64,000 nucleotides of DNA from Dehalococcoidia bacterium (GCA_963665775.2 CAXXTF010000001.1:256001-320000), one strand, 5' to 3'. Positions 11,031-23,311 are shown, counted from the first letter of the stretch. The notes: generated by a model not told the origin, from the letters alone. Numbers and translations: made by a program.

Positions 11031-12739
11031 CTATCGCTCGATTATCGCGGTCTGCCAGTAGAAGAAGTCACCAGGAATACCGTCGGCACCGGTCATCAGC
11101 AGGTCCTGGACGTAGGGCTTGACCAGCCAAGCCGTCTCGTCATTGAACAGCGCACACAGGGCGACGTCCTCGTCGATGAGGACCCCCTCAGCCCGCTGCC
11201 AGAGCCTCACCGCCTCCTGGGGATCGTCCGCGGCCAGGGCGGACTCCACGGCGGCATCGTACTCGGGGTTGCTGTAACCGCCGGTGTTCAGAGCGCCATC
11301 CTCCGTCCAGAGGAGAAGCCAGTTCTGGGGATGGTGGTAGTCCTGGGTGAAGCCGATGAAGGTAAGGTCATAGTCGCCACCGAAGAACGCCTCGAAAAAG
11401 GCCGCTCCATCCAGGGGCTCAAGGTCAACGCTTAGGCCCAGGTTCTGCTTCCACTGGCCCTGTAGAAACTCCGCCCGGGTGGGGTTAGGGTCAGTGTTGA
11501 AGTAGGTCAGTTCGACGGAGGAGGTGAAGTCGGCAGGCGGCTTGGGGTCAGAACCCGATACCTGCACCGAGTCGGGATCGAACACCAGCCCCTGTCCCCG
11601 CTCAGCATCGTAGTAGGGGAGAAGGCCGGGCGGGAGCCAGGCGGTAGTAGGATTACCAAGACCCTGCTGTACTTCGTTCACGAGGGTCTCACGATCGATT
11701 GCCTGACAGACACTCTCCCGGGCGTTGAGCGTATCGAATGGTGGGTGGGTCTGGTTGAACACAATGGCGACCGTAGTGGCCTGGGCCACCCGCCGCAATT
11801 CCGGGTCGTCAGACAGTCCCCGAAGACTGGCCAGGGGCACCGGAGCCATATCCAGCCCGCCACTCTGGTAGGCGGCATAGGCTGTATTCTCATCCTGGAT
11901 GATCGAAAAGACGATGCGCTCCAGGGTCGGACGCATATCCTGGTCCCAGAAGTTAGGGTTCCGCTCCAGGACGATGCGTTCGCCGTGATCCCAGGCCGCC
12001 AATCGGAAGGGTCCACTGGCCACCAGGTTGCCGGCTTCCGTCCAAACAGTGTTGGCGATGTCACCATGGCTCTCGATGACGTCCTGACGGAGGGCGGCAG
12101 TGGGCCAGAGGGACATTTGAAGGTTGAAGGTCGGTGTCGGCTGGATGAGCGTTACCTGAAGGGTGTGATCGTCCAGGGCACGGACGGCCAGGGCCTGGCG
12201 CAACGACTCGATCGTCCCCTCGTCCGCGTCGACAGCCTGGGAAAGCTCAGCCCCACCCTCGACGATGGTGGTGTAGTAGGTGTTGCCGTAGTAGGAGCCA
12301 ATACTGGGGTCCATGAGCCGCTGGAGGCCGTAGACGAAGTCCTTGGCCTGGATCGGCCGCCCGTCCTCCCAGACGGCATCCTCGCGCAGCTTGCGCGCAG
12401 CTTGAAGGTATAGGTAAGACCGTCCCCGCTGATGCCACCGTTCTCCCGGTTGGGGACCTCCACGGCCACATATGGATAGAGCTCATTTACAGTGGGATCG
12501 AAGCGGAGAAGCGTGGCAAAGATGTTCTTGGCCACCATCGCCTCCTCAGGGAAGGCGGCGAGGCTCGGATCGATGTAGTCGGGCTCGGCGCCTAGGGCCA
12601 CGCGCAGGGTCTGGTCTTCGGCCAGCCGGCCGAAGGATCCGCCATCCCCATCTTGCCCACAAGCAATCGCAGCAACAAGGGCGGCCAGAGCCACCAGAGC
12701 GATCGGCCAGAAACGCCATCTGTTAGGTAACAATCTCAT
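11031..12739 (-). pseudogene. Oligopeptide-binding lipoprotein (OppA), frameshifted
   Basis: Lipobox AIAC. An 11-bp tandem duplication CGCGCAGCTTG at 12383-12404 breaks the frame; removing it restores YTFKLREDAVWEDGRPIQAKDF. Confidence 0.88.
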
Positions 12740-12856
12740 TGCGCGCCATCCCCTTAACCTACTTACCTGCGGCAGGACACATCTTGTCCCACCTAAATAA
12801 AAAGATGGTCTGCGCGGGTTTGTGTTACATGTTCTGGCCGGAACTTTTGAGAAATC

Positions 12857-13414
12857 TCAGGAGAACGATGGATAATTAGATGAGTGATCGGGCGGGCCTA
12901 GCCGCCGTATCCGCGGCAGGAACAGCTCTCCTAGAGTGATCACCAAGCCGGCGGCGATGACCAGATCGCCAACGCTGAAGGCGTTGATCGAAGTTGGGTT
13001 TTTCCAAACCAGCGTATCGGTGAGAAACCAGAGGCGGGTGTCCTCTCGGGCCAAGAGGACATCTTTAGATTGCGGCACCCACTCACCTAGGGCTAGACCT
13101 TCTGACGGCCGGCCGATCCGCTCCAGGGTGTCGGGGCTCACGGGCATCAAGCCGCCATTGCTGGCGATAGCGACGAAGTTCAACAGCAGGCCCACGCCGA
13201 TGATCATGAGCCCCGGTCGCCGCAGGTTGGCCAAGACGAACACCAGCAGCAAGGGATAGGAAGAGACAAGCAGAACCCGCCGCGGGATATCGCTGAAGCC
13301 CAGCGGGCCAAAGATGGCGAGCAACTGCAGGGCAAGGGCCAAAAAAGCCAGTGGCCCGAGGCGGATCACCACCTTCGGGAACCACAAGCGCACGCCGAAC
13401 CTAAGACAGCGCAA
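12857..13414 (-). CDS. DUF5317-like multi-pass membrane protein
   Basis: Hydrophobic; ANLRRPG, LNFVAIASNGGLMPV and LTD...FSVGDLVI motifs as recalled for DUF5317; the start may be a few codons downstream. Confidence 0.75.
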   Translation of the reverse strand: MRCLRFGVRLWFPKVVIRLGPLAFLALALQLLAIFGPLGFSDIPRRVLLVSSYPLLLVFVLANLRRPGLMIIGVGLLLNFVAIASNGGLMPVSPDTLERIGRPSEGLALGEWVPQSKDVLLAREDTRLWFLTDTLVWKNPTSINAFSVGDLVIAAGLVITLGELFLPRIRRLGPPDHSSNYPSFS

Positions 13415-13479
13415 ACCGGGGAGGCGAAACCCCTCCGCGCAAGCCGGGACGGCCTATTCTGTTGTGGGCGATCGAACTC

Positions 13480-13569
13480 CTATCCTCGCCAGAGCGGTGC
13501 CGCAGCGGCGGCGACGAGGGCGCCGATCACTAGAAGCGAGTAGGCCATATAAGTAAGTCGTGCCTTCAT
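13480..13569 (-). CDS. 29-aa hydrophobic micro-peptide MKARLTYMAYSLLVIGALVAAAAAPLWRG
   Basis: Below the ORF-track cutoff; strong SD (GAGGGAGGGG) before ATG; own promoter; signal-peptide-like with a short Trp-containing tail. Confidence 0.75.
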   Translation of the reverse strand: MKARLTYMAYSLLVIGALVAAAAAPLWRG

Positions 13570-13613
13570 GATACCCCTCCCTCTCGGTATTACCCGAGTC
13601 AATGTAACCTATT

Positions 13614-13641
13614 AGTATACCAATTGCTAAAGGGATGTCAA
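13614..13641 (-). promoter_or_regulatory. Sigma70-type promoter for the peptide/DUF5317 genes
   Basis: TTGACA-N16-TATACT with an extended -10 TG, in an AT-rich patch. Confidence 0.65.
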
Positions 13642-13779
13642 GGGATAAATATAAGGATTTCGAAAAAAAAGCCCGTAAAGGACTTTTGCGAGCTATTATC
13701 GTCAACCGAAGCTATTACGGTCAACTGGAGGCGCCATCCGCTTCCCCTCGGGCTAGTATCCCCGGCGTCCCTCCCCAGA

Positions 13780-14073
13780 TCAGCTGTCAGCGCACCAGAT
13801 GGCCACCATCGGTTCGCCATCGGGGCTTTCGGCCGGCACGTATCGCACCATGTGCAGGTCCGCCCCGCTGCAACCGCCAACGTAAATGGCGTACTCCACC
13901 GTCACATCCGAGGTGCTGCCCGGCCAGGGCCATGAACACTCATCTTCAGACACGGCACAGCTAGTGACGGCCGAAGGAGGGCTCTCCGCGTCCGCAGACC
14001 GCGACCCGATGCTCTGACCGGCCACCAGGGCGAACAGCAGCATCGCCAACAACGCGAAAAAGCCTAATCGCAT
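13780..14073 (-). CDS. Small secreted Cys/Trp-containing hypothetical protein
   Basis: Signal peptide MRLGFFALLAMLLFALVAGQS, RBS GGGGAG, four Cys. Confidence 0.6.
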   Translation of the reverse strand: MRLGFFALLAMLLFALVAGQSIGSRSADAESPPSAVTSCAVSEDECSWPWPGSTSDVTVEYAIYVGGCSGADLHMVRYVPAESPDGEPMVAIWCADS

Positions 14074-14081
14074 TGTCTCCC

Positions 14082-14171
14082 CTAGAATAGAGGACTTTGG
14101 CCGGCCACAGTGGCCAGCATCAGGGCCAGCATGGTTACCACTAAGTTAAGATTCATGAAGTTAAGATTCAT
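14082..14171 (-). CDS. 29-aa hydrophobic micro-peptide MNLNFMNLNLVVTMLALMLATVAGQSPLF
   Basis: Strong SD GAGGAGGAG; in-frame 15-bp tandem duplication at the N-terminus; shares VAGQS with the downstream ORF. Confidence 0.6.
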   Translation of the reverse strand: MNLNFMNLNLVVTMLALMLATVAGQSPLF

Positions 14172-14253
14172 ATCGCTCCTCCTCTGCCACCAGTCTCCCA
14201 GAGCCCTCTCGCCAAAATCTCGCCGAAAGACCGAGAGGTGACGCGCGAAGGGG

Positions 14254-14286
14254 AAAAAGGAAGCGGCCCCCTCATCGGGGGCCGCT
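14254..14286 (-). terminator. Rho-independent terminator of the STAND/TPR regulator gene
   Basis: AGCGGCCCC-CGATGAG-GGGGCCGCT followed by TCCTTTTT. Confidence 0.75.
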
Positions 14287-14308
14287 ATCGAGGCTACCGT
14301 CTCTTGCT

Positions 14309-17300
14309 CTAGGCCGGCGATCTACCTCTGCTGATCTGGCGCTGAATCTCGTCGAAGTCCTGAGCTGTTTCCCCGCCGAGGTTTTCGGAGATGATTTGAG
14401 CATAGCGATTGTAGCTGTACTTAGCGGCTTCCAGGTGACCGGACTGAATGTAGTTGGTCATCAGACGATACCAGGCCGCCTCATTCAACTCGTCCACGCC
14501 GAGGATGCGCTGGCAGAGCTCGGCGCTACGCTTGAATTCGCCTGCCTGGCTGTAGGCCGCCGCCAGCGTCGTGAGGAGCCGCATGTACTGCTCCTCTGTC
14601 TGCCAGCGCAGCGTCTCCGCCCACTCCGAGTAGAAGTCCGAGGCGAAGGGACCGTTGTACTGCGCCAGCGCCTTCTCCTGCAAGGCCAACGCCTCTGGGC
14701 CGCCCTTCGGCGCCCTGTCCGCCTGCTGCAACGCCTGCTGAAATGCTGCCACGTCAAAGGGGAAATGCCCCTGGGGATCCAGGATGTACCGTCCTGAGTC
14801 CTTGGCGATGCAGTCAGGATAGAGGGCCTGCCGCAGGCGATAGAGGTTCGAGTGGAAGGCGCTGCCGGTCTTTTCGTCGGGAAGGTCGGGCCAGAGTGCG
14901 GCCACGATCTCATCCTTGCGCAAGGGGCGCCGGTGGCAGAGGAAGAAGAAGAACATCTCCTTGCTCTTCTCGCTGCGCCACTCCAGATCCGTGATCTCTC
15001 GTCCGTCGATCTCCACGCGAAGGTTGCCCAATCCGTACGCCTGTACCGTCGTGCCGGCGGACTCCGGCTGCGCTGTCTCCTGCGAAGCCTCCGCCTGCGC
15101 TCCCGCTGGGGCCCTGATCACCTTCAGCAACTGTCCAAAGTAACCATCGGCTATCTTGTTGGCGGCCGCATACTGAACCAGCAGCGGATTCCGCGCAGCC
15201 TCGACTTTCAGGAAGTGATCGTAGCCCAACCCCTGCACCAGGTTGGCCACAGTCTCCAGGCTCTCCAGGGCCAGCCGCTTGCGCTTAAGCGAGAAGTAGA
15301 CACCGCCCAGATGGAAGTGCGCGGTGGCCAGCTCTCGCTTGGCGTCCGCCTGCTTGAGGAGGCGACTGGTCTCTTCCAGAGACGATACCGCCTCCTTAGG
15401 CTGACCGCGGTCGCGCTGGATGAGGCCCCGCGTTAGAGTGCAAAGGCCCAACTCAAACACGCCCCCCCGCTCTTCCGCCTCAGCGGTGGCCCGATTCGCC
15501 CAAGACTCCCCATCGGTGATATCTCCCATGAGCCGGTATGTATTAGCGATGGCGTCCATAGTATAGATGCGAATGTAGGCCTCGTCCAAGTCGGAACCCC
15601 GTTCCAAGGCGGAGTTGTACAACTCCTGGGCGCCCTGGTACTCGCCCCTGTCCCGGCGGATATCGCCCAGGCAGGTCAGGAGATAGGCCTCTGCCTCCGA
15701 GCGTATCTCCTCCTCCACCTTCTCCAGGGCCTGCCGGAAGACCGCGTCGGCTTGATCGAAGTCACCCTGGAGGTAGTGCAGCATGCCCAGGTTATTCAGA
15801 TTCTGCACTAGCTTCTTGTCGTTGCCCAGCTTGGACCAGCGCTGGCGCGCCCGCATCAGATAGTCCGCTGCCTCCGAAAGCCGGCCCAGGGCTACCAAGG
15901 CAACGCCGATCTGGTCGCTCACGTGGGCAATGTCATAGGACTCGCCCTGAGCCTCGTAGACCTCCAGCGCACCCCTCAGCTCGTTCAGCTCCTTGTCGAA
16001 CTCGCCGCACATTCCGTAGGTGATACCCAACTCCTTGCGGGCCTCAGTCAAGAGAGAGGTAGGTCCATCGTGTTTGAGGAGTAGGGAGCGAGCCCTCGTC
16101 AGCACTTCCTCCGATTCCTTGTAGTCACCCTTGACCCGCAGGCACATTCCCTTCGTGACCAACGCCTCGGCCAGGGAAACCCACTCCTTCTCGGCCTCAA
16201 AGGAGACGATCGCCTCGGCCAGCAATGATAGGGCCCTGTCCATCTGATGCAGATAGTGAAGCATGCGCGCCTTCCACAGAATCAGCTTCGGCTGCGCCGC
16301 CAGCTCCTCCGGCGGGATCGCCTCCAGCCAGCCGGCAAGGGTATCCCACTTCCCCTCTCTGAACAGCTGCCAGCCGACCCGCTCCGTAACTTGCACGATT
16401 CGCTCCCAGGCGCTGGCCTGAAGGTAATGGTACACGGCCTCTTCCCACTCCTCCGCCTTCTCCTGGAGGCCGGCCGCCCTGAGGTTCAAGTCCCGGAAGC
16501 GCTGCGGCTCCTGGGCCCGCAAATGGCTCATGAGGAAGGCCCGTACCAGCTTGTTATAGCGATAGCGCGTCCGACCGTCGTCCTCCTGGACGATGAACAG
16601 ATTCCGCCGCTCCAGGAAGTTGATCGTCTCTTCAGCATCGTCAATCTCGAGCAGTTCATTCATGAATTCCGATTCGACCGTTCTAGGCACCGCGCTGCCC
16701 AACAGGAACTCCCGCACCTCCGACGGCAGCGAGTCAAACTGCTCCACCTTAATGTATGTGGCCAGCGTGTCCGAGCCCCGGAGCTGCTCCGGCGAGATGG
16801 AGGTGCGGGCTAGTCGCACCTTATCCGCCAGGAGAATGAGAGCTGCTGCCCAGCCCTCCGTGACCTCCGCAAGATGCTGACCATCGTCCAGGGAGATTTC
16901 CTTCCCCAGAACCTCTCGGAATAGACGTACGACTTCTTCGCAGCTGAAGGCGAAATCGGAGCTGGCGATCGTGGCCACCTCCTGGCGGGCGGACATCAGA
17001 GGCAGCACCGAAAGCTGGGGCATAGTGCGGGCAGCCAGGATCAGGTGGCAGTTCTCCGGCACCCGGTAGATCCACCCCTCCAGCGCCTGCCGCAGCTCCG
17101 GCGGCGCGCCGTCCAGATAGTGGAAGTCGTCGAGGATCATCAGGTAAGGCTCCCCGACGGCCTGCACAGCCGTGATCAACAGGTCGACCGCCTCTTCCGG
17201 GGATATCGGTTGGCCCTGGCGAAGGGCATGGGCCAGATTCCCTCCGAAGCTGGGGAATTGACGCTGGCCGGAGGCGAGGAGGTAGCGCAGGAAGCTCTCC

Positions 17301-17566
17301 AGATCCTGCTCCCTCTCGTCCAGGGAGTACCAGCAGACGGGAAGATCACAGGACCGGGCGAAGTCTAGGATGAGGGATGTCTTGCCGTATCCAGCGGGGG
17401 CGCTGATGATGGTGACTCGGCGCTCCAGCCCCTGGGCCACCAAGTCGAGCAGGCGCTGGCGGCGGATTATGGGAGGGCGACGGACAGGTAGAGCTACCTT
17501 GGAGGGATAGGGCACCTCCAGGGTCACTGGACCGCTACTATGCTTCTCAATAGTGTCAGCCATCAC
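14309..17566 (-). CDS. MalT-like STAND ATPase with TPR array and C-terminal wHTH/BTAD (SARP-like) domain
   Basis: APAGYGKT Walker A, LDDFH Walker B, TEGWAAAL, many TPR-like helices, C-terminal WRSEKSKE/LWPD/YRLRQAL and YNGPF..FYSEW. Confidence 0.88.
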   Translation of the reverse strand: MMADTIEKHSSGPVTLEVPYPSKVALPVRRPPIIRRQRLLDLVAQGLERRVTIISAPAGYGKTSLILDFARSCDLPVCWYSLDEREQDLESFLRYLLASGQRQFPSFGGNLAHALRQGQPISPEEAVDLLITAVQAVGEPYLMILDDFHYLDGAPPELRQALEGWIYRVPENCHLILAARTMPQLSVLPLMSARQEVATIASSDFAFSCEEVVRLFREVLGKEISLDDGQHLAEVTEGWAAALILLADKVRLARTSISPEQLRGSDTLATYIKVEQFDSLPSEVREFLLGSAVPRTVESEFMNELLEIDDAEETINFLERRNLFIVQEDDGRTRYRYNKLVRAFLMSHLRAQEPQRFRDLNLRAAGLQEKAEEWEEAVYHYLQASAWERIVQVTERVGWQLFREGKWDTLAGWLEAIPPEELAAQPKLILWKARMLHYLHQMDRALSLLAEAIVSFEAEKEWVSLAEALVTKGMCLRVKGDYKESEEVLTRARSLLLKHDGPTSLLTEARKELGITYGMCGEFDKELNELRGALEVYEAQGESYDIAHVSDQIGVALVALGRLSEAADYLMRARQRWSKLGNDKKLVQNLNNLGMLHYLQGDFDQADAVFRQALEKVEEEIRSEAEAYLLTCLGDIRRDRGEYQGAQELYNSALERGSDLDEAYIRIYTMDAIANTYRLMGDITDGESWANRATAEAEERGGVFELGLCTLTRGLIQRDRGQPKEAVSSLEETSRLLKQADAKRELATAHFHLGGVYFSLKRKRLALESLETVANLVQGLGYDHFLKVEAARNPLLVQYAAANKIADGYFGQLLKVIRAPAGAQAEASQETAQPESAGTTVQAYGLGNLRVEIDGREITDLEWRSEKSKEMFFFFLCHRRPLRKDEIVAALWPDLPDEKTGSAFHSNLYRLRQALYPDCIAKDSGRYILDPQGHFPFDVAAFQQALQQADRAPKGGPEALALQEKALAQYNGPFASDFYSEWAETLRWQTEEQYMRLLTTLAAAYSQAGEFKRSAELCQRILGVDELNEAAWYRLMTNYIQSGHLEAAKYSYNRYAQIISENLGGETAQDFDEIQRQISRGRSPA

Positions 17567-17633: not shown

Positions 17634-19009
17634 TTACTGCCGGCCGGCATGATTAATCTGCACATCTTCCGGCTCGGCTGCCCCGGCACGATCGGGTCGG
17701 GTAGCCTCGACGCATGATTCGGCCGCGTCCGCCGGTGGCGCTGGATATCCCTGCCGGCTCCCGATACGAGAGTTGGTGCCATCATCTTCGGGCGCCGCCA
17801 AGGTCACCCGGTTGCGGCCGTTCAACTTGCTGCGATAGAGAGCCACGTCAGCCTCGTACAGCAGCTGATCGGGTCGCCGACAGGGCTCCGGAAAGGCAGC
17901 CACGCCCAGGCTTATGGTGACCCGCAGCGGCTCTGGCGAATCGCGGAGAGGGCGCTGATCATGGCCTCCACGGCCGCCCGCAGCCGCCCGGCCATGATCA
18001 GCGCCCTCTCCGCATCAGTGTCATGCAGCAGGATAAAGAACTCCTCGCCCCCGAAGCGTCCGGCCACATCGTCACCGCGCAGGGTCCGGCGCAGCACGCC
18101 GCCCACCACCCGCAACACCTCGTCACCGGCCAGATGGCCCAGAGAGTTGTTGACGTTTCGCAGGAGATCCAGATCGGCCATTATTACCGCCGTCGGTCGC
18201 GGCTCCCTCTGCAAGAGGGCGACCTCTTCCCGGAAAGCGTCCAGAGACCTTCGCGCTGTGAGCAGCCCGGTCTTGGCATCGTGGTACGCCTCTTCCTGAA
18301 GCCCGGGCACAAACAGGGCTCGGTAGAAGAGGAAAAGAGGCGCGATGGCCAGGGCGACGAAAGGCGGGGTCACCGTCCACATGACGGCCATGCCGACCCC
18401 CACACAGGCCAGGGAAATATCCGTCCCTACGCTCTGCCAGGCCAGGATACCCGATTCCCTGATCCCTATTCCCCGCGCCAGGCGCAGGACCGTCGCCACC
18501 ATGGCGTGATTCAGGACAGTAAGGGTGGATGCGGTCACTAACGCGGCCCATACCACCTGCCAGGACCCGATCTCGACGCTGTCACCCGCTACGATACGGA
18601 AATTGGCCCAGGCGACCAGGACGTTCAGCAGGTACGTGGCCATGTTGAACGTCTGGATGTACCAGGGGTAGCGATACTTTAGCCACTCCGGCAGCATGGC
18701 CAGCACCACAAGCAAGACCAGCAGCGGCGGCTCCAGGAGCAGAATCGCGGCCAGGAGGAAGGCCGGTGTGGCGTGATACGATTGTCGGTTGGGAGCATCG
18801 ACCATGAAGAGCTGGGCCGCCGCCGTCAGGGGTACCAGCAGCGCGAAGGCCAGCAGCGCCTCCGTATCCGGCAGGCCAGGGCGGTCCCCTATAGAGGGGC
18901 GGACCACTACAAAAAGGATGACAGCGCCCACGGCCAGGGCGTAGATGACCGCCAGGTATATCCGGGCCAACGTCGACAGAGCAAGCGGTGGATTCTCCTC
19001 CGCCGGCAT
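17634..19009 (-). pseudogene. Membrane-sensor diguanylate cyclase (GGEEF), frameshifted
   Basis: About 7 TM segments, then DAKTGL, VNNSLGHLAGD, RFGGEEF. The C-terminus (VTISLGVA...ADVALYRSKLNGRNRV) is in another frame after about 17945. Confidence 0.85.
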
Positions 19010-19074: not shown

Positions 19075-20411
19075 TCAGTCGCCCACGAGGACGCTCCGCC
19101 ACAAAACGCTGTCGTAGAGGATTTCGCCTGTCTCCGGGTCGATAAGGTCATTGGGGGTAGCGCCATGGTTGGCCTGACCATGGGTTTTGGCATGGATAGC
19201 GGCAAAAGCATCGACCCGCGGCGCCTGGGAACCGTCCAGTGGCTGGCCCGTCCGCATGAGACGGAACTTGACTTGGTCCGGCGTGAGATCCGGGTCATCC
19301 TCCAGCATGAGAGCGACGACTCCAGAGACGACGGCCGCCGAAGGAGATGTACCGCTCAGGCGCAGGTAGCGGCCATCCACCACGGCCTCCGGCATCGCCC
19401 GCGCTAGGTAGGAGCCACGGCTGGCCAGAGCGGAGAGGATCCCCTGACCCGGGGCAATCACCTCCGGCTTGGCGTAACCGTCCACGGTCCGGCCGCGGCT
19501 GGACCAATCGACCACCGTATCGTCGGCGGTATCGGCAGTGCCGGCGTCATCAAAGGCGCCCACGGTGATGACGTAGGGATCGTTAGCCGGGGCGTGATCC
19601 ACGGCGAACTCCTCATCGCCGTCGTTGCCGGCTGCCACAACGACCACAATGTCGTGGAACCAGGCCTGCTCCACCGCCGCGTCCAGCGGGTCCTGGAGGT
19701 AGCTGTCGGCGACGGAGGAGACGAGGAGTTCGCCACCCGGATGTCGTACTCATCCCGGTGGTCCACCGCCCACTGCAAGGCGGCTACCACGTCGCTGGCC
19801 AGGGCGCGACCCTCGCGGTCGGCCACCTTAAGGCTTAATATCTGGGCCCCGGGGGCTATCCCCGTGTAGGCATCCGCCTCACCGGCGATCCCACCGGCCA
19901 GGCTGCCGCTAAGGTCATTCCCATCCGCGACACCGCTGTCGATAACGGCGACCGTTATGCCCTCGCCGCTGATCCCCTCGTCCCAAGCGGCGACGGCGTT
20001 GACAGCGAACGGGTACGCCACTCCCAGATCAGATGTGCCGTCCTGGTCGTCGTCATTGCCAGACGCCATCATTTCGGCGTCCAGCGACACCACCAGTACG
20101 GCCGGATCGCGGGCCAGCCGGTCGATCTCCGTTGGCGGCAGCGTCGCCGCGAAGCCATCGATCAGCGGCAGCTGCGCCGAGGTCTCGACCGAGCCCGCCA
20201 GTTGGCCGCCCGCCCGGGCGGTCCCCTCCCGCACCCGCACTATCACGGGTACGTCTTCCCCTGGGTGCTGCGCCGTGTAGACGGCCACCCCGAGACGCAC
20301 CCTCTCCTGCGACCCCATATCCGCTTCGCCGAGCCCCATCCAGACCAGGGCAGCCAAGACGGCAAAGGCGGTCAATCCCCGAATCAAGTTGCGCCCAGAC
20401 ATCCTCTTCAT
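19075..20411 (-). pseudogene. Secreted S8 (subtilisin-like) serine protease, disrupted
   Basis: Signal peptide and propeptide, VAVIDSG (Asp), AAGN, SGTSPS (Ser). The HGT catalytic-His segment is missing and there is a frameshift near 19725. Confidence 0.85.
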
Positions 20412-20454: not shown

Positions 20455-22158
20455 CCCGAATCCACCGAAGGACGGCCTTGGGGACAGTCCTTGAAGAAGC
20501 CATCGGGTGCTCCTCTGAATCTGGGATAATGGTTTTGGAACAGAAACCAGCCCGGAAACAAGGAGCACCCAATAGATGCTGCCACAGAACAAACCCGACC
20601 GTATCCGCATCCTCTTTGACGACCATCGCCTGGTGGCCAATGCCGGCCTGCTCCTGCCAGCCACCCTAGCCCGGCACCTGGGCCTGCGGGAACTCGTCGA
20701 CCATCACCTTGACCTCGGCGGAGCGCCGGGACGGGCGAACACTGGGGACAAGATGCTGACGCTGGTCGCTTCCGCGCTGGCAGGCGGCGACTGCATCGAC
20801 GACGCCGATGCGCTGCGCGCTGGTGGGACGGTCGGTGTTCTAGGCTGCGTGGTCAAGGCGCCATCCACCCTGGGGACCTTCCTGCGCAGCTTCCGGTGGG
20901 GGCATGTCCGTCAACTCGACCGCGTGAGCCGCCAGTTGTTGGCCCGGGCCTGGGCCGCTGGGGCCGGACCCGGCGACTCGCCCCTGACCATCGACCTGGA
21001 CTCGACCATCTGCGAAACCTATGGACTGGCCAAGGAGGGAGCGCGCCACCACGGCTATACCGGCGCCCGCGGCTATCACCCGCTGCTGGCCATTGCCGCC
21101 GGCACCGGCGAGGTGCTGATGTCCCGGCTGCGCGAGGGCCGGGCCAACACCGCCCGTGGCGCCGCCCACTTCCTGCGTGAGACGGTGGGGCGGGTGCGCT
21201 ACGGCGGGGCCAGGGGACAACTCACGGTGCGGGCCGACAGCGGCTTCTACGCCCACACTGTCGTTGCCGCCTGCCGGGAAATGGATGTCCGCTTCTCTAT
21301 CACCATCCGCCAGCGCGCCAGCCTGCGGGACCTGATCGAGGCGATACCAGAGGAGGACTGGACTCCCATTCCCTACTGGATGGACGGCGCCGCCGATGTC
21401 GCCGAGACGACTTACACCCCGTTCCAGACCAAGCCGGACGCCGCGCCGGTGCGGCTCATTGTCCGGCGGGTGAAGCCGATGCCCGGTTCCCAGCTCGCCC
21501 TCTTCGCCAGATACAGCTATCACGCCTTCATCACCGACCGCGATGGGGAGACGCTGGAACTGGAGGCCGATCATCGCCGCCACGCCGAGGTCGAGAACGC
21601 CATACGCGACCTCAAGTACGGCGTCGGGCTGAACCACATGCCGTCGGGGCGCTTCGCCGCCAACGGCGCCTGGCTGGCGGTCCAGGTGATGGCGCATAAC
21701 CTGGCCCGCTGGACAGCCCGCATCGGCCTGGGTCAGCAGATCGTGACCACCAAGACCCTCAGGCGGCGGGTCTTCGCTCTCGTGGGACGGATCACCCGCT
21801 CGGCGCGCCGCCTCACTTTGCATCTCCCCCGGCGCTGGCCTTGAGAAACCCAGTTCAGTCGCGCCTTGGCCCGGCTGCAAGCCATTCCATTCCCGGCCTG
21901 ACGGCCAGCCTGCAACTGACCCAACGTCCCCGCAATCTCGCGCCACCCCGGTCGCGAGAGTCCCCTGCTGCGTATCCTCTCGCCATCCCGCGCATCGCAA
22001 CTCCCGCATAGGGCCTTAGGGGCCCTGTGCGGCGACTGAAGACCGTCCGCCGGCCTCCCATCTACCCCAAGACCCCAGGCCATCTCCCCTGTAGCTCCCT
22101 CACCCACCCCCTTCCGCTGTCCTCACGCCGTCCATCCGTGTCCTTCGGTGGATTCGGG
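20455..22158 (+). mobile_element. IS1380-family insertion sequence
   Basis: 19-bp terminal inverted repeats CCCGAATCCACCGAAGGAC; 5-bp target duplication TTTAC at 20450-20454 and 22159-22163. Confidence 0.92.
20576..21844 (+). CDS. IS1380-family DDE transposase, probably with a late nonsense codon
   Basis: TIDLDST, GYHPLL, RADSGFY, HAEVENAIRDLK; the frame continues past the TGA as ETQFSRALARLQAIPFPA*. Confidence 0.9.
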   Translation: MLPQNKPDRIRILFDDHRLVANAGLLLPATLARHLGLRELVDHHLDLGGAPGRANTGDKMLTLVASALAGGDCIDDADALRAGGTVGVLGCVVKAPSTLGTFLRSFRWGHVRQLDRVSRQLLARAWAAGAGPGDSPLTIDLDSTICETYGLAKEGARHHGYTGARGYHPLLAIAAGTGEVLMSRLREGRANTARGAAHFLRETVGRVRYGGARGQLTVRADSGFYAHTVVAACREMDVRFSITIRQRASLRDLIEAIPEEDWTPIPYWMDGAADVAETTYTPFQTKPDAAPVRLIVRRVKPMPGSQLALFARYSYHAFITDRDGETLELEADHRRHAEVENAIRDLKYGVGLNHMPSGRFAANGAWLAVQVMAHNLARWTARIGLGQQIVTTKTLRRRVFALVGRITRSARRLTLHLPRRWP

Positions 22159-22195: not shown

Positions 22196-23311
22196 TTACG
22201 GCCAACGCGTTGAGGAGCAGTTAAGTGCTGGTTGACAGATAGTTTGCGCCACCCGCGGGTCGAACTGCTGGCCGCCGCAGCGCTCCAGCTCTTGAGTCGC
22301 CATCTGCAGGGAGAGGACGTTGCGGTAGGAGCGGTGGGTGGTCATGGCATCGAAGGCGTCGCTCACCAGGATGATACGGGACCCGATGGGGATATCCTCA
22401 CCCGACAAGCCGTCCGGATAGCCGCCGCCATCGTAATGCTCGTGGTGATGGCCTACTATAGGTGCCGCCGCTGCCAGGGCTGGTATCCGGTTGAGGATGT
22501 CCCTGCCCACCAGCGGGTGATTCCGCACTACCGTCTTCTCTTCCTCGGTGAGGGGACCCCCCTTGAGCAGTATTCGATCGGGCATGGCCAGCTTCCCGAT
22601 GTCGTGCAGGAGAGCGGCCTCCTCGATCAGGTTCTGACGGGCTGGGGAGAGGCCTATCTCCTTCGCCACCCGCTTAGCGTACCAGGCAGCGCGGCTCGTC
22701 TGGCCGGCCAGAGCCCCCGTCTTCCGCTCCAGCGCGGCCACCAGGGCCGTTATGGGATCGCTCACCCTGCGCTTGCGCCTCCAGGCGCTGTCTTCGGCGC
22801 AGACCAGATCACCCCAGTAGCCTACTTTGTTACCGCCCACGGCCTTGGCCCAGTACATCGCCGCCTCCGCACCGTACACCAACTCCGCCTCCGAATGGGC
22901 AGACTCGGGATAGCTGGCCACCCCCAGACTGACCATCGCCTCGCCGATGGGCGTTCGCACGGCGCTCGCCACCTTCGCCCGCAGTTTCTCGGCCAGCAAG
23001 ACGGCGGCCCGCGCCGACACCTCCGGGAGGAGGGACGCCAACATGTCTCCGCCCACTCGATAGGCGGGCCCAGCCCGCGAAGCGATGACGACCCGGAACT
23101 CTTGCAGAACCCTATCGCCTATCTCCCAGCCGATGGAGTCGTTCACGAGCCGGAAGCTGTCCAGCCCGGCAACGATGACGCTTAGCGCGGTGCCTTCCTG
23201 CTCCGCCTGCCTGAAGAAGGCCGCTACCTGCTCACCGAACGCCTGATGGTCATCACCGGCAGAACCCAGGTCCAACGCCGTAGCCGGCAGGTTCACCTCT
23301 AGTGGACTCAT
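22196..23311 (-). CDS. Degenerate GGDEF plus HD-GYP c-di-GMP phosphodiesterase
   Basis: GGDML in place of GGDEF; LHDIGK, HHEHYDGGGYPDGL, DAFDAMT. Confidence 0.88.
   Translation of the reverse strand: MSPLEVNLPATALDLGSAGDDHQAFGEQVAAFFRQAEQEGTALSVIVAGLDSFRLVNDSIGWEIGDRVLQEFRVVIASRAGPAYRVGGDMLASLLPEVSARAAVLLAEKLRAKVASAVRTPIGEAMVSLGVASYPESAHSEAELVYGAEAAMYWAKAVGGNKVGYWGDLVCAEDSAWRRKRRVSDPITALVAALERKTGALAGQTSRAAWYAKRVAKEIGLSPARQNLIEEAALLHDIGKLAMPDRILLKGGPLTEEEKTVVRNHPLVGRDILNRIPALAAAAPIVGHHHEHYDGGGYPDGLSGEDIPIGSRIILVSDAFDAMTTHRSYRNVLSLQMATQELERCGGQQFDPRVAQTICQPALNCSSTRWP

Follow-up and report, generated by a model that had tools for sequence, protein, structure and literature searches.

A conserved mini-protein gene upstream of DUF5317 in Chloroflexota and its possible role as a membrane client

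We analyzed a stretch of 64,000 nucleotides (nt) from a Dehalococcoidia bacterium (GCA_963665775.2 CAXXTF010000001.1:256001-320000), referred to below as the window, in which an earlier note had proposed an unannotated precursor peptide of 29 amino acids (aa) just upstream of a gene of the DUF5317 family. As judged from its coding signature and its conservation, this open reading frame (ORF; 13480..13569, minus strand) is a genuine gene for a tiny, predicted single-pass membrane protein. Regarding its role, we tentatively favor the view that it serves DUF5317 as a dedicated membrane client and may be cut at an A-x-A-P boundary, a reading to which we give a probability of about 0.4. Physical contact between the two proteins and, above all, any cleavage are steps that we infer.

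The frame MKARLTYMAYSLLVIGALVAAAAAPLWRG consists of 29 codons and a stop, with the ATG at 13569 on the minus strand and the stop codon TAG at 13482-13480. A longer alternative of 40 codons, starting from a TTG at 13602, is also present; we preferred the ATG because the related loci support this start. A strong ribosome-binding site, GGAGGGG (13574..13580, minus strand), lies 4 nt 5' of the ATG, as the earlier note had observed, and a G-rich motif was found at the same place in 28/28 related loci. The deduced peptide has a basic N-terminus (K2, R4), one predicted membrane helix, an Ala run, Pro25 and the tail LWRG. This layout of basic N-terminus, hydrophobic core, Ala run and short tail was already visible in the window peptide alone, and we found it to be shared by the relatives. 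With its basic n-region (K2, R4), its hydrophobic h-region and its small residues at positions -3 and -1, the peptide resembles a substrate of signal peptidase I, from which it departs by a Pro at +1 and by the lack of a mature protein after the site. According to the positive-inside rule, the N-terminus would be cytoplasmic and the C-terminal tail would lie outside. The genome of the window holds one copy of the gene.

To place the gene among relatives, we examined the DNA upstream of DUF5317, which was present in 26 of 41 genomes of relatives, the genome of the window included; two loci (L008 and L030) were excluded for incomplete upstream DNA. All 28 loci with upstream DNA carried an ORF of the same build, 24-32 codons long and located 46-92 nt before the conserved part of DUF5317. 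Among 14 exact 29-codon copies, pairwise differences at codon positions 1, 2 and 3 numbered 987, 575 and 1406, respectively. In the same copies, the ratio of synonymous to non-synonymous differing codons was 755/1153 in frame, compared to 305/1540 and 129/1672 in the shifted frames. This coding signature points to selection at the protein level, and a chance ORF is therefore excluded.

A wider set, built with one genome per species, added 80 loci, mostly from Dehalococcoidia, Anaerolineae and Caldilineae with a few from Actinomycetota. After deduplication, 90 distinct loci were retained, 83 of them with at least 250 nt of upstream DNA. Candidates were called by a fixed rule, which required a length of 20-50 codons, a ribosome-binding motif, an early Lys or Arg, and a segment in which 15/16 residues were hydrophobic or small; it identified an upstream peptide in 71 of these 83 distinct DUF5317 loci. 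With inspection the count rose to 77/83, since six loci missed by the rule (L065, L075, L087, L099, L106 and L108) had a family-like frame that failed on length, start context or distance. No peptide ORF was found, by rule or by inspection, in L081 and in the Actinomycetota loci L094, L095, L104, L107 and L111. As a control, the same rule matched 11 of the 1502 ORFs of at least 200 aa in the genome of the window (260-nt vs 330-nt upstream segment). In the wider set, the peptide ORF was located 22-188 nt upstream of DUF5317 on the same strand. The small-ORF search upstream of DUF5317 homologues, suggested earlier as a check, thus found the ORF to be conserved. The DUF5317 family is also present in Thermus, Thermotoga and other phyla, whose loci stand outside these counts.

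All the peptides share the same organization: a basic N-terminal part, one hydrophobic helix, a run of small residues leading to an invariant Ala, usually a Pro, and a tail. The basic N-terminal part comprises 3-5 residues in the group of the window and about 20 in the Anaerolineae-type forms; in these longer forms, the predicted cytoplasmic N-terminal part is also conserved. In the close set, the Ala preceding the Pro position (A24) is invariant, and the position itself is occupied by Pro in 20/28 peptides and by Ala or Gly in the rest. Within the helix, the small residues G16, A17 and A24 are conserved. The tail after the boundary has 3-15 residues and follows the pattern x-aromatic-x-W-[GR] or aromatic-hydrophobic-R in Dehalococcoidia and x-G-G-x-I-G-x in Anaerolineae. 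It therefore differs between lineages, keeps its pattern within each of them, and is not hypervariable; the peptides of L063 and L074 have identical tails and differing N-terminal parts.

The exact peptide of the window was absent from about 15 billion catalogued proteins, and two of its relatives, one with an NCBI origin, are catalogued as singletons without a name. At E ≤ 0.01, neither the window peptide nor the other peptides scanned matched a Pfam or NCBIfam family. The best family match, OppC_N, was obtained with one relative (E 0.013) and aligned a membrane helix with a membrane helix. For a relative of 47 aa, we observed unnamed look-alike clusters of 44-47 aa in the ESM Atlas (scores 0.93-0.95, 74-102 members) and DUF7503 at 0.88; a Pfam scan of the same relative gave no family at E values up to 10.

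The gene is preceded by a predicted sigma-70-type promoter (13614..13641, minus strand) composed of TTGACA (13641-13636), a 16-nt spacer, an extended TG (13622-13621) and TATACT (13619-13614), with a score of 11/12. The claim of a strong promoter belonging to the ORF itself was therefore well founded, and the -35 box TTGACA was invariant across the 22 aligned loci. In the region 12700-14400, we found three promoter-like sites, compared to 0.7 ± 0.9 in shuffled sequences. Near the predicted transcript start, the 5' untranslated region (5'-UTR) contains a hairpin, CTCGG-gtaata-CCGAG (13583..13598, minus strand). Relatives have a hairpin in the corresponding position, with GGTAATC after it and with pairing kept through compensatory changes. 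They also have an inverted repeat with compensatory changes inside the 16-17 nt spacer between the -35 and -10 boxes, of which the copy in the window is degenerate. For the spacer repeat and the 5'-UTR hairpin taken together (22 loci, alignment L003-L029), 80.8% of the cells were paired, compared to 33-46% when the partners were slid; the covariation score was 0.304, compared to at most 0.123 when slid, and 0/500 shuffles matched the observed value. These elements may act as an operator, as a DNA structure or as an RNA structure.

Further upstream, a T-rich block, TTTTTTTTCGAAAT (13657..13670, minus strand), occupies the usual place of an UP element (about -45 to -55), and its consensus TTCGAnAT is kept in relatives; its position and its conservation suggest such a function. 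At 13692..13724 (minus strand), the sequences TTGACCGTAATAGC and TTGACGATAATAGC form a pair of direct repeats with a spacing of 19 nt. The downstream copy aligns with a conserved box, TTGAC[CG]ATAA[CG], found about 95 nt upstream of the -35 box in relatives, several of which carry another, weaker copy some 20 nt beyond it. The repeats may form a regulator site, possibly for a SARP-type regulator.

The start signals of the two genes are markedly asymmetric. A ribosome-binding motif was found for 28/28 peptide genes and for 4/28 DUF5317 genes (nearest DUF5317 start). In these 28 loci, the peptide starts with ATG in 24 cases and with GTG in 4, whereas the expected stretch of the DUF5317 gene offered GTG in 10, TTG in 8, ATG in 5 and no start codon in the remaining 5. 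At the very start of the DUF5317 frame, nine loci (L009, L010, L015, L020, L022, L023, L025, L027 and L029) have a GCGCC-n4-GGCGCC palindrome. This palindrome and the five loci in which ATG, GTG and TTG are all absent hint at an unusual or regulated initiation of DUF5317.

Between the two genes, a GC hairpin (13419..13437, minus strand) without a T run after it is present, as reported at about 13437-13419 in the earlier note, but we found no support for a tuning role. The intergenic fold was not above chance (z +0.44, with 128/200 shuffles folding at least as well), and no intergenic hairpin of conserved place or sequence was observed in the 28 related loci. The scan of the window revealed no terminator-like site in this intergenic stretch, and an Rfam scan of 12700-14400 at E ≤ 5 returned chance-level rows only and no riboswitch. 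Taken together, the asymmetric start signals, the absence of a terminator-like site and the absence of a conserved hairpin suggest one transcript giving much peptide and little DUF5317. The two genes are probably co-transcribed, and their signals suggest that the peptide is translated far more efficiently than DUF5317. The proposal that the peptide is made in excess is thus a fair one, given the ribosome-binding motifs and the ATG starts (24/28 vs 5/28); the description of DUF5317 as its processing gene, made in the same proposal, did not fare as well, as detailed below.

The DUF5317 gene (12857..13414, minus strand) encodes a membrane protein that matches Pfam PF17248 with an E value of 2.1e-26 (93.2 bits for a cut-off of 25). 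Its true start is uncertain, with candidates at TTG 13414, GTG 13393 and TTG 13387. The Pfam DUF5317 profile was matched by 26/26 aligned relatives. The predicted structure, a confident one with a mean predicted local distance difference test (pLDDT) of 87.3 and a predicted template modelling score (pTM) of 0.78, contains helices at residues 12-27, 35-54, 59-77 and 140-162. A loop of about 60 residues between helices 3 and 4 contains the conserved motifs NGGLMP, SKDV, L-x-D and FSxGD. This loop probably faces outward, since basic residues mark the N-terminus, the link between helices 2 and 3, and the stretch following helix 4. In 35 diverse members, G67, N71, N78, G80, M82, P83, S139, G141 and D142 were invariant, and Q22, N55, D125 and G148 were at least 90% conserved; the conserved polar residues sit at the outer helix ends and in the loop. 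The loop Lys of the SKD motif was present in 73/75 peptide-linked loci, compared to 0/6 peptide-less loci, and the loop was 45-51 residues long in the six peptide-less loci, compared to a median of 56. On these sequences, the link between the Lys-loop and the peptide appears striking, yet it follows the family tree.

We observed two variants of the family in passing. One DUF5317 copy (L028:1477-2184, plus strand) has a C-terminal extension with Cys pairs of the zinc-ribbon type, and 1/26 aligned members, probably this same copy, matches Pfam DUF1451 (E 0.00049). A search for longer fused forms returned one protein, with PF17248 only. In the literature searched, no paper names DUF5317 or PF17248, and a search combining the nitrile hydratase leader peptide with HD-GYP found nothing.

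We then considered the predicted complex between DUF5317 and the peptide, both given as alignments. The prediction scored 0.37, compared to 0.01 for the best of three controls, which is weak support, the job lying outside the calibration because of the 29-residue partner and the custom alignments. In that calibration, the mark was reached by 58/80 solved complexes and by 2/110 mismatched pairs; at scores of 0.60 or less, it was reached by only 7 of the 80 solved complexes and by both mismatches. The runs agreed in at least 92% of the contacts, and the pLDDT of the partner was at least 64. This prediction raises the odds of a contact between the peptide and DUF5317 a little and is silent on cleavage.

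The pair sits in a signalling neighbourhood in which a STAND-SARP regulator and enzymes of cyclic di-GMP (c-di-GMP) are conserved. The regulator (1085 aa; 14309..17566, minus strand) carries a SARP module (BTAD) at its C-terminus, together with TPR repeats and an NTPase of the AAA_16/NACHT type; its last 256 aa match the SARP domain of AfsR (8hvr_I, E 3.3e-8) and EmbR (2fez, E 0.0015). Of the 80 fetched loci, 48 encode a homologue upstream and on the same strand. The scan of the window also identified a GGDEF protein (17912-19009) and a protein with GGDEF and HD-GYP domains (22196-23311). Downstream of DUF5317, the window encodes an Opp-type SBP_bac_5 binding protein and two OppB/OppC-type permeases; the binding protein is found downstream in 16/80 loci, with matches only in Dehalococcoidia-type loci. 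In the Anaerolineae/Caldilineae-type loci, the regulator is followed by the peptide, DUF5317, a small protein weakly resembling NHLP leaders and a GAF/PAS-HD-GYP protein, in that order. The small protein directly follows DUF5317 in 30 of these loci (L058-L110; for example L090:3035-3445) and combines a conserved domain (about 60 residues; E-I-N-R-L-L-x-A-A-V-V ... L-x-E-F-A) with a C-terminal tail that varies. Its resemblance to NCBIfam NF038399 of the NHLP clan is weak (E 1.1e-5, 25.4 bits, below the cut-off of 40). In two peptide-less Actinomycetota loci (L094 and L107), an HD-GYP protein precedes DUF5317, with a weak MASE9 match in both and a GGDEF domain also in L107. Overall, the flanks examined hold GGDEF, HD-GYP and GAF/PAS signalling enzymes, a transporter and proteins without family, and no modification enzyme or leader peptidase for ribosomally synthesized and post-translationally modified peptides (RiPPs).

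Between the regulator and the peptide gene, we identified a second conserved mini-ORF, MNLNFMNLNLVVTMLALMLATVAGQSPLF, of 29 codons (14082..14171, minus strand). A strong ribosome-binding site precedes it, and 8 nt separate its stop from the gene of a 97-aa protein (13780..14073, minus strand), which is predicted to be secreted, contains four Cys and is without known family. The mini-ORF was kept in 18/20 testable loci, where it ends in VA[AG]QSP[LF]F or VAGQS[VA]FI. Its synonymous to non-synonymous ratio was 419/357 in frame, compared to 70/750 and 16/788 in the shifted frames. The mini-ORF product looks similar to the signal peptide (MRL...LVAGQS) of the 97-aa protein next to it. Among the loci searched, the 97-aa protein had matches only in close Dehalococcoidia-type loci, and a PDB profile search with it gave 0 matches.

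Three other observations concern the surrounding genes. The SBP_bac_5 gene (11031-12739, minus strand) is split into two overlapping frames by a frameshift, real or due to an assembly error. The same holds for a subtilase (Peptidase_S8) gene 5.5 kb away (19075-20411, minus strand). A DDE transposase gene (20576-21844, plus strand; DDE_Tnp_1_4, E 8.7e-55) lies between the subtilase gene and the gene with GGDEF and HD-GYP domains.

For the client role that we favor, the proposed sequence of events is as follows. The peptide would insert into the membrane and its helix would pack against the four-helix bundle of DUF5317. The A-x-A-P boundary and the short tail would then be presented to the outward loop of DUF5317, with its Lys-containing SKD motif, D125, S139 and D142. 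DUF5317 would act on this boundary by cleavage or turnover, the peptide being an abundant client of a scarce membrane enzyme. We place this role slightly ahead because of the asymmetry in expression signals, the boundary, which resembles a cleavage site and is the best-kept part of the peptide, and the enzyme-like polar residues of DUF5317.

Several results weigh against this reading. The counted loci belong to related genomes, and the synteny counts are not independent events. The six peptide-less loci keep S139, D142 and an Asp equivalent to D125, and the core function of DUF5317 can therefore dispense with the peptide. A Pro right after A-x-A blocks signal peptidase I, and such a residue fits an uncleaved anchor equally well. 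The conserved cytoplasmic N-terminal part of the Anaerolineae-type peptides would suit a lasting subunit. In addition, searches with DUF5317 gave 0 matches for a sequence profile against the PDB, none at E ≤ 0.001 for Foldseek against the PDB, and at best generic helical bundles (Z 7.8) for VIA-align wide. A comparison by hhalign of DUF5317 with two alignments of LspA, the signal peptidase II, covered only the last 36-38 columns, with probabilities of 4.2% and 3.4% (P 0.0097 and 0.013). The earlier suggestion that DUF5317 is a processing enzyme is thus left without a significant match to a peptidase or to a solved fold.

The hhalign result set the FSxGD motif of DUF5317 and the following helix on the FNVAD motif of LspA, a local and non-significant match, and Peptidase_A8 was matched by 1/26 DUF5317 members (E 0.12). 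LspA was not among the Foldseek or VIA-align rows listed for DUF5317, a Protein Atlas search gave no usable named match, and an ordinary LspA is encoded elsewhere in the genome. We regard the possible likeness to signal peptidase II as a lead only, which does not amount to membership. Of three weak Peptidase_A8 matches considered as kin of DUF5317, the two examined correspond to a different small LspA-like protein and were rejected. This divergent membrane protein (L172:782-1168 and L170:551-1081, both plus strand) keeps T-N-V-A-D and matches Peptidase_A8 below the cut-off. Both genes are adjacent to a long coiled-looking ORF on the opposite strand, and the ORF immediately preceding the L172 gene has a GGDEF-like C-terminal sequence (GGEEF by eye).

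Alternatively, the peptide could be a stable, uncut accessory or regulatory subunit, an extra membrane helix on DUF5317 that tunes membrane signalling linked to c-di-GMP. We consider this tentative explanation nearly as likely as the client role. It shares the synteny and the complex prediction with the client reading, and the small residues G16, A17 and A24 are of the kind used in helix packing. The family-level tail patterns with the identical tails of L063 and L074, the conserved cytoplasmic N-terminal segment of the longer forms, the co-occurrence of the Lys-loop with the peptide and the lack of a significant enzyme match for DUF5317 are also in its favor. However, a subunit bound in a one-to-one ratio would not usually show so large a difference in expression signals, conservation in the peptide peaks at a boundary of small residues and Pro that looks like a cleavage site, and the conserved Asp, Ser and Asn of DUF5317 face outward, as in enzymes.

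A more far-reaching version of the client reading appears unlikely to us, although it brings several elements of the locus together. DUF5317 would be a new membrane peptidase, whose outward Asp pair converges on the layout of signal peptidase II; the released tail or the remaining anchor would feed into c-di-GMP and STAND-SARP control, and the second mini-protein would belong to the same circuit.

The earlier note had read the peptide as a pheromone or RiPP-like precursor. In such a system, the tail would be secreted and sensed by the TPR-bearing STAND-SARP regulator, perhaps after uptake by Opp. The layout is indeed precursor-like, the regulator lies directly upstream in 48/80 loci, Opp-type genes lie directly downstream in the window with the binding protein downstream in 16/80 loci, and the Anaerolineae-type loci encode the weak, below cut-off NHLP-leader-like protein after DUF5317. 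In contrast, the tail keeps family patterns instead of being hypervariable between relatives, to the point of identity in L063 and L074, and a signal made of a 3-5 residue tail would be very short. Matches to the Opp-type binding protein of the window were confined to the Dehalococcoidia-type loci among the 80 fetched. We found no modification enzyme in the flanks examined, no peptidase or exporter was identified, and each locus has a single precursor copy. These results make a pheromone or RiPP-like product improbable and lend no support to a species-specific pheromone.

The peptide gene could also act in cis as a leader ORF, its translation, and not its product, controlling the poorly initiated DUF5317 gene. 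The lack of a ribosome-binding motif before DUF5317 in 24/28 loci, its mostly weak start codons and the position of the ORF 22-188 nt upstream on the same strand are consistent with this. However, selection at the amino-acid level over phylum-scale divergence, a gap of varying length without conserved intergenic structure and a complex prediction above its controls make it very unlikely. A variant in which the leader ORF targets the mRNA to the membrane was rejected by reasoning, as a chain of 24-32 residues ends inside the ribosome tunnel. Finally, an independent membrane-active peptide, of the type I toxin or bacteriocin-like kind and near DUF5317 by chance, has the small, hydrophobic and cationic build common among such peptides, but is hardly credible: the genome of the window has one copy, the chromosomal synteny is fixed across classes, an unrepressed consensus promoter is combined with a strong ribosome-binding site, and the complementary strand of the gene showed no promoter-like site. 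A chance ORF is excluded by the coding signature.

Overall, these results add a conserved gene that gene callers mostly miss and give DUF5317, a family without recognized fold, its first concrete and testable partner. They tie the peptide and DUF5317 to c-di-GMP enzymes and to a STAND-SARP regulator in the poorly cultivated phylum Chloroflexota. What is at stake is whether the pair represents a new membrane peptidase and its substrate or includes a small regulatory subunit of a new kind. If the peptidase reading is true, the pair would constitute a previously undescribed, phylum-wide peptide-handling module of Chloroflexota.

Several known systems offer points of comparison. LspA (MEROPS A8, PF01252) is a small membrane protein (about 130-150 residues aligned) with conserved Asp in NLxDR and FNVAD; these residues are outward-facing and catalytic, and its substrates have a boundary of small residues. 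Unlike these substrates, the window peptide has no Cys and therefore no lipobox. In Flp prepilin and TadV, the gene of a highly expressed small hydrophobic precursor is directly followed by the gene of a small membrane aspartyl peptidase. The Gly-x4-Glu-Tyr motif of this system is absent from the aligned peptides by inspection, no tad genes were recognized in the scanned part of the window, and DUF5317 had no Peptidase_A24 match in the Pfam scans.

The RRNPP and Agr systems are exemplified by SHP-Rgg, ComS-ComR, Phr-Rap and AgrD-AgrB. The window resembles them in that its peptide is short, joins a basic and hydrophobic N-terminal part to a short C-terminal part, and is encoded near a TPR-bearing regulator and an Opp-type system. 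It differs from RRNPP systems in that the neighbouring regulator is an AAA_16/NACHT-TPR STAND NTPase with SARP output, the tail is not hypervariable and no processing or export protein was identified.

The last comparison is with small membrane partners such as MgrB-PhoQ, AcrZ-AcrB, KdpF-KdpABC and CydX, which have fewer than 50 residues and one helix and act by contact with a larger membrane protein; KdpF and CydX are encoded in the operon of their partner. The window peptide has no sequence relation to them, and it differs by its A-x-A-P boundary and by expression signals far above those of its candidate partner. Like them, it is short (29 residues), appears to be missed by routine annotation and combines a single predicted membrane helix with a conserved adjacency to its candidate partner, DUF5317.

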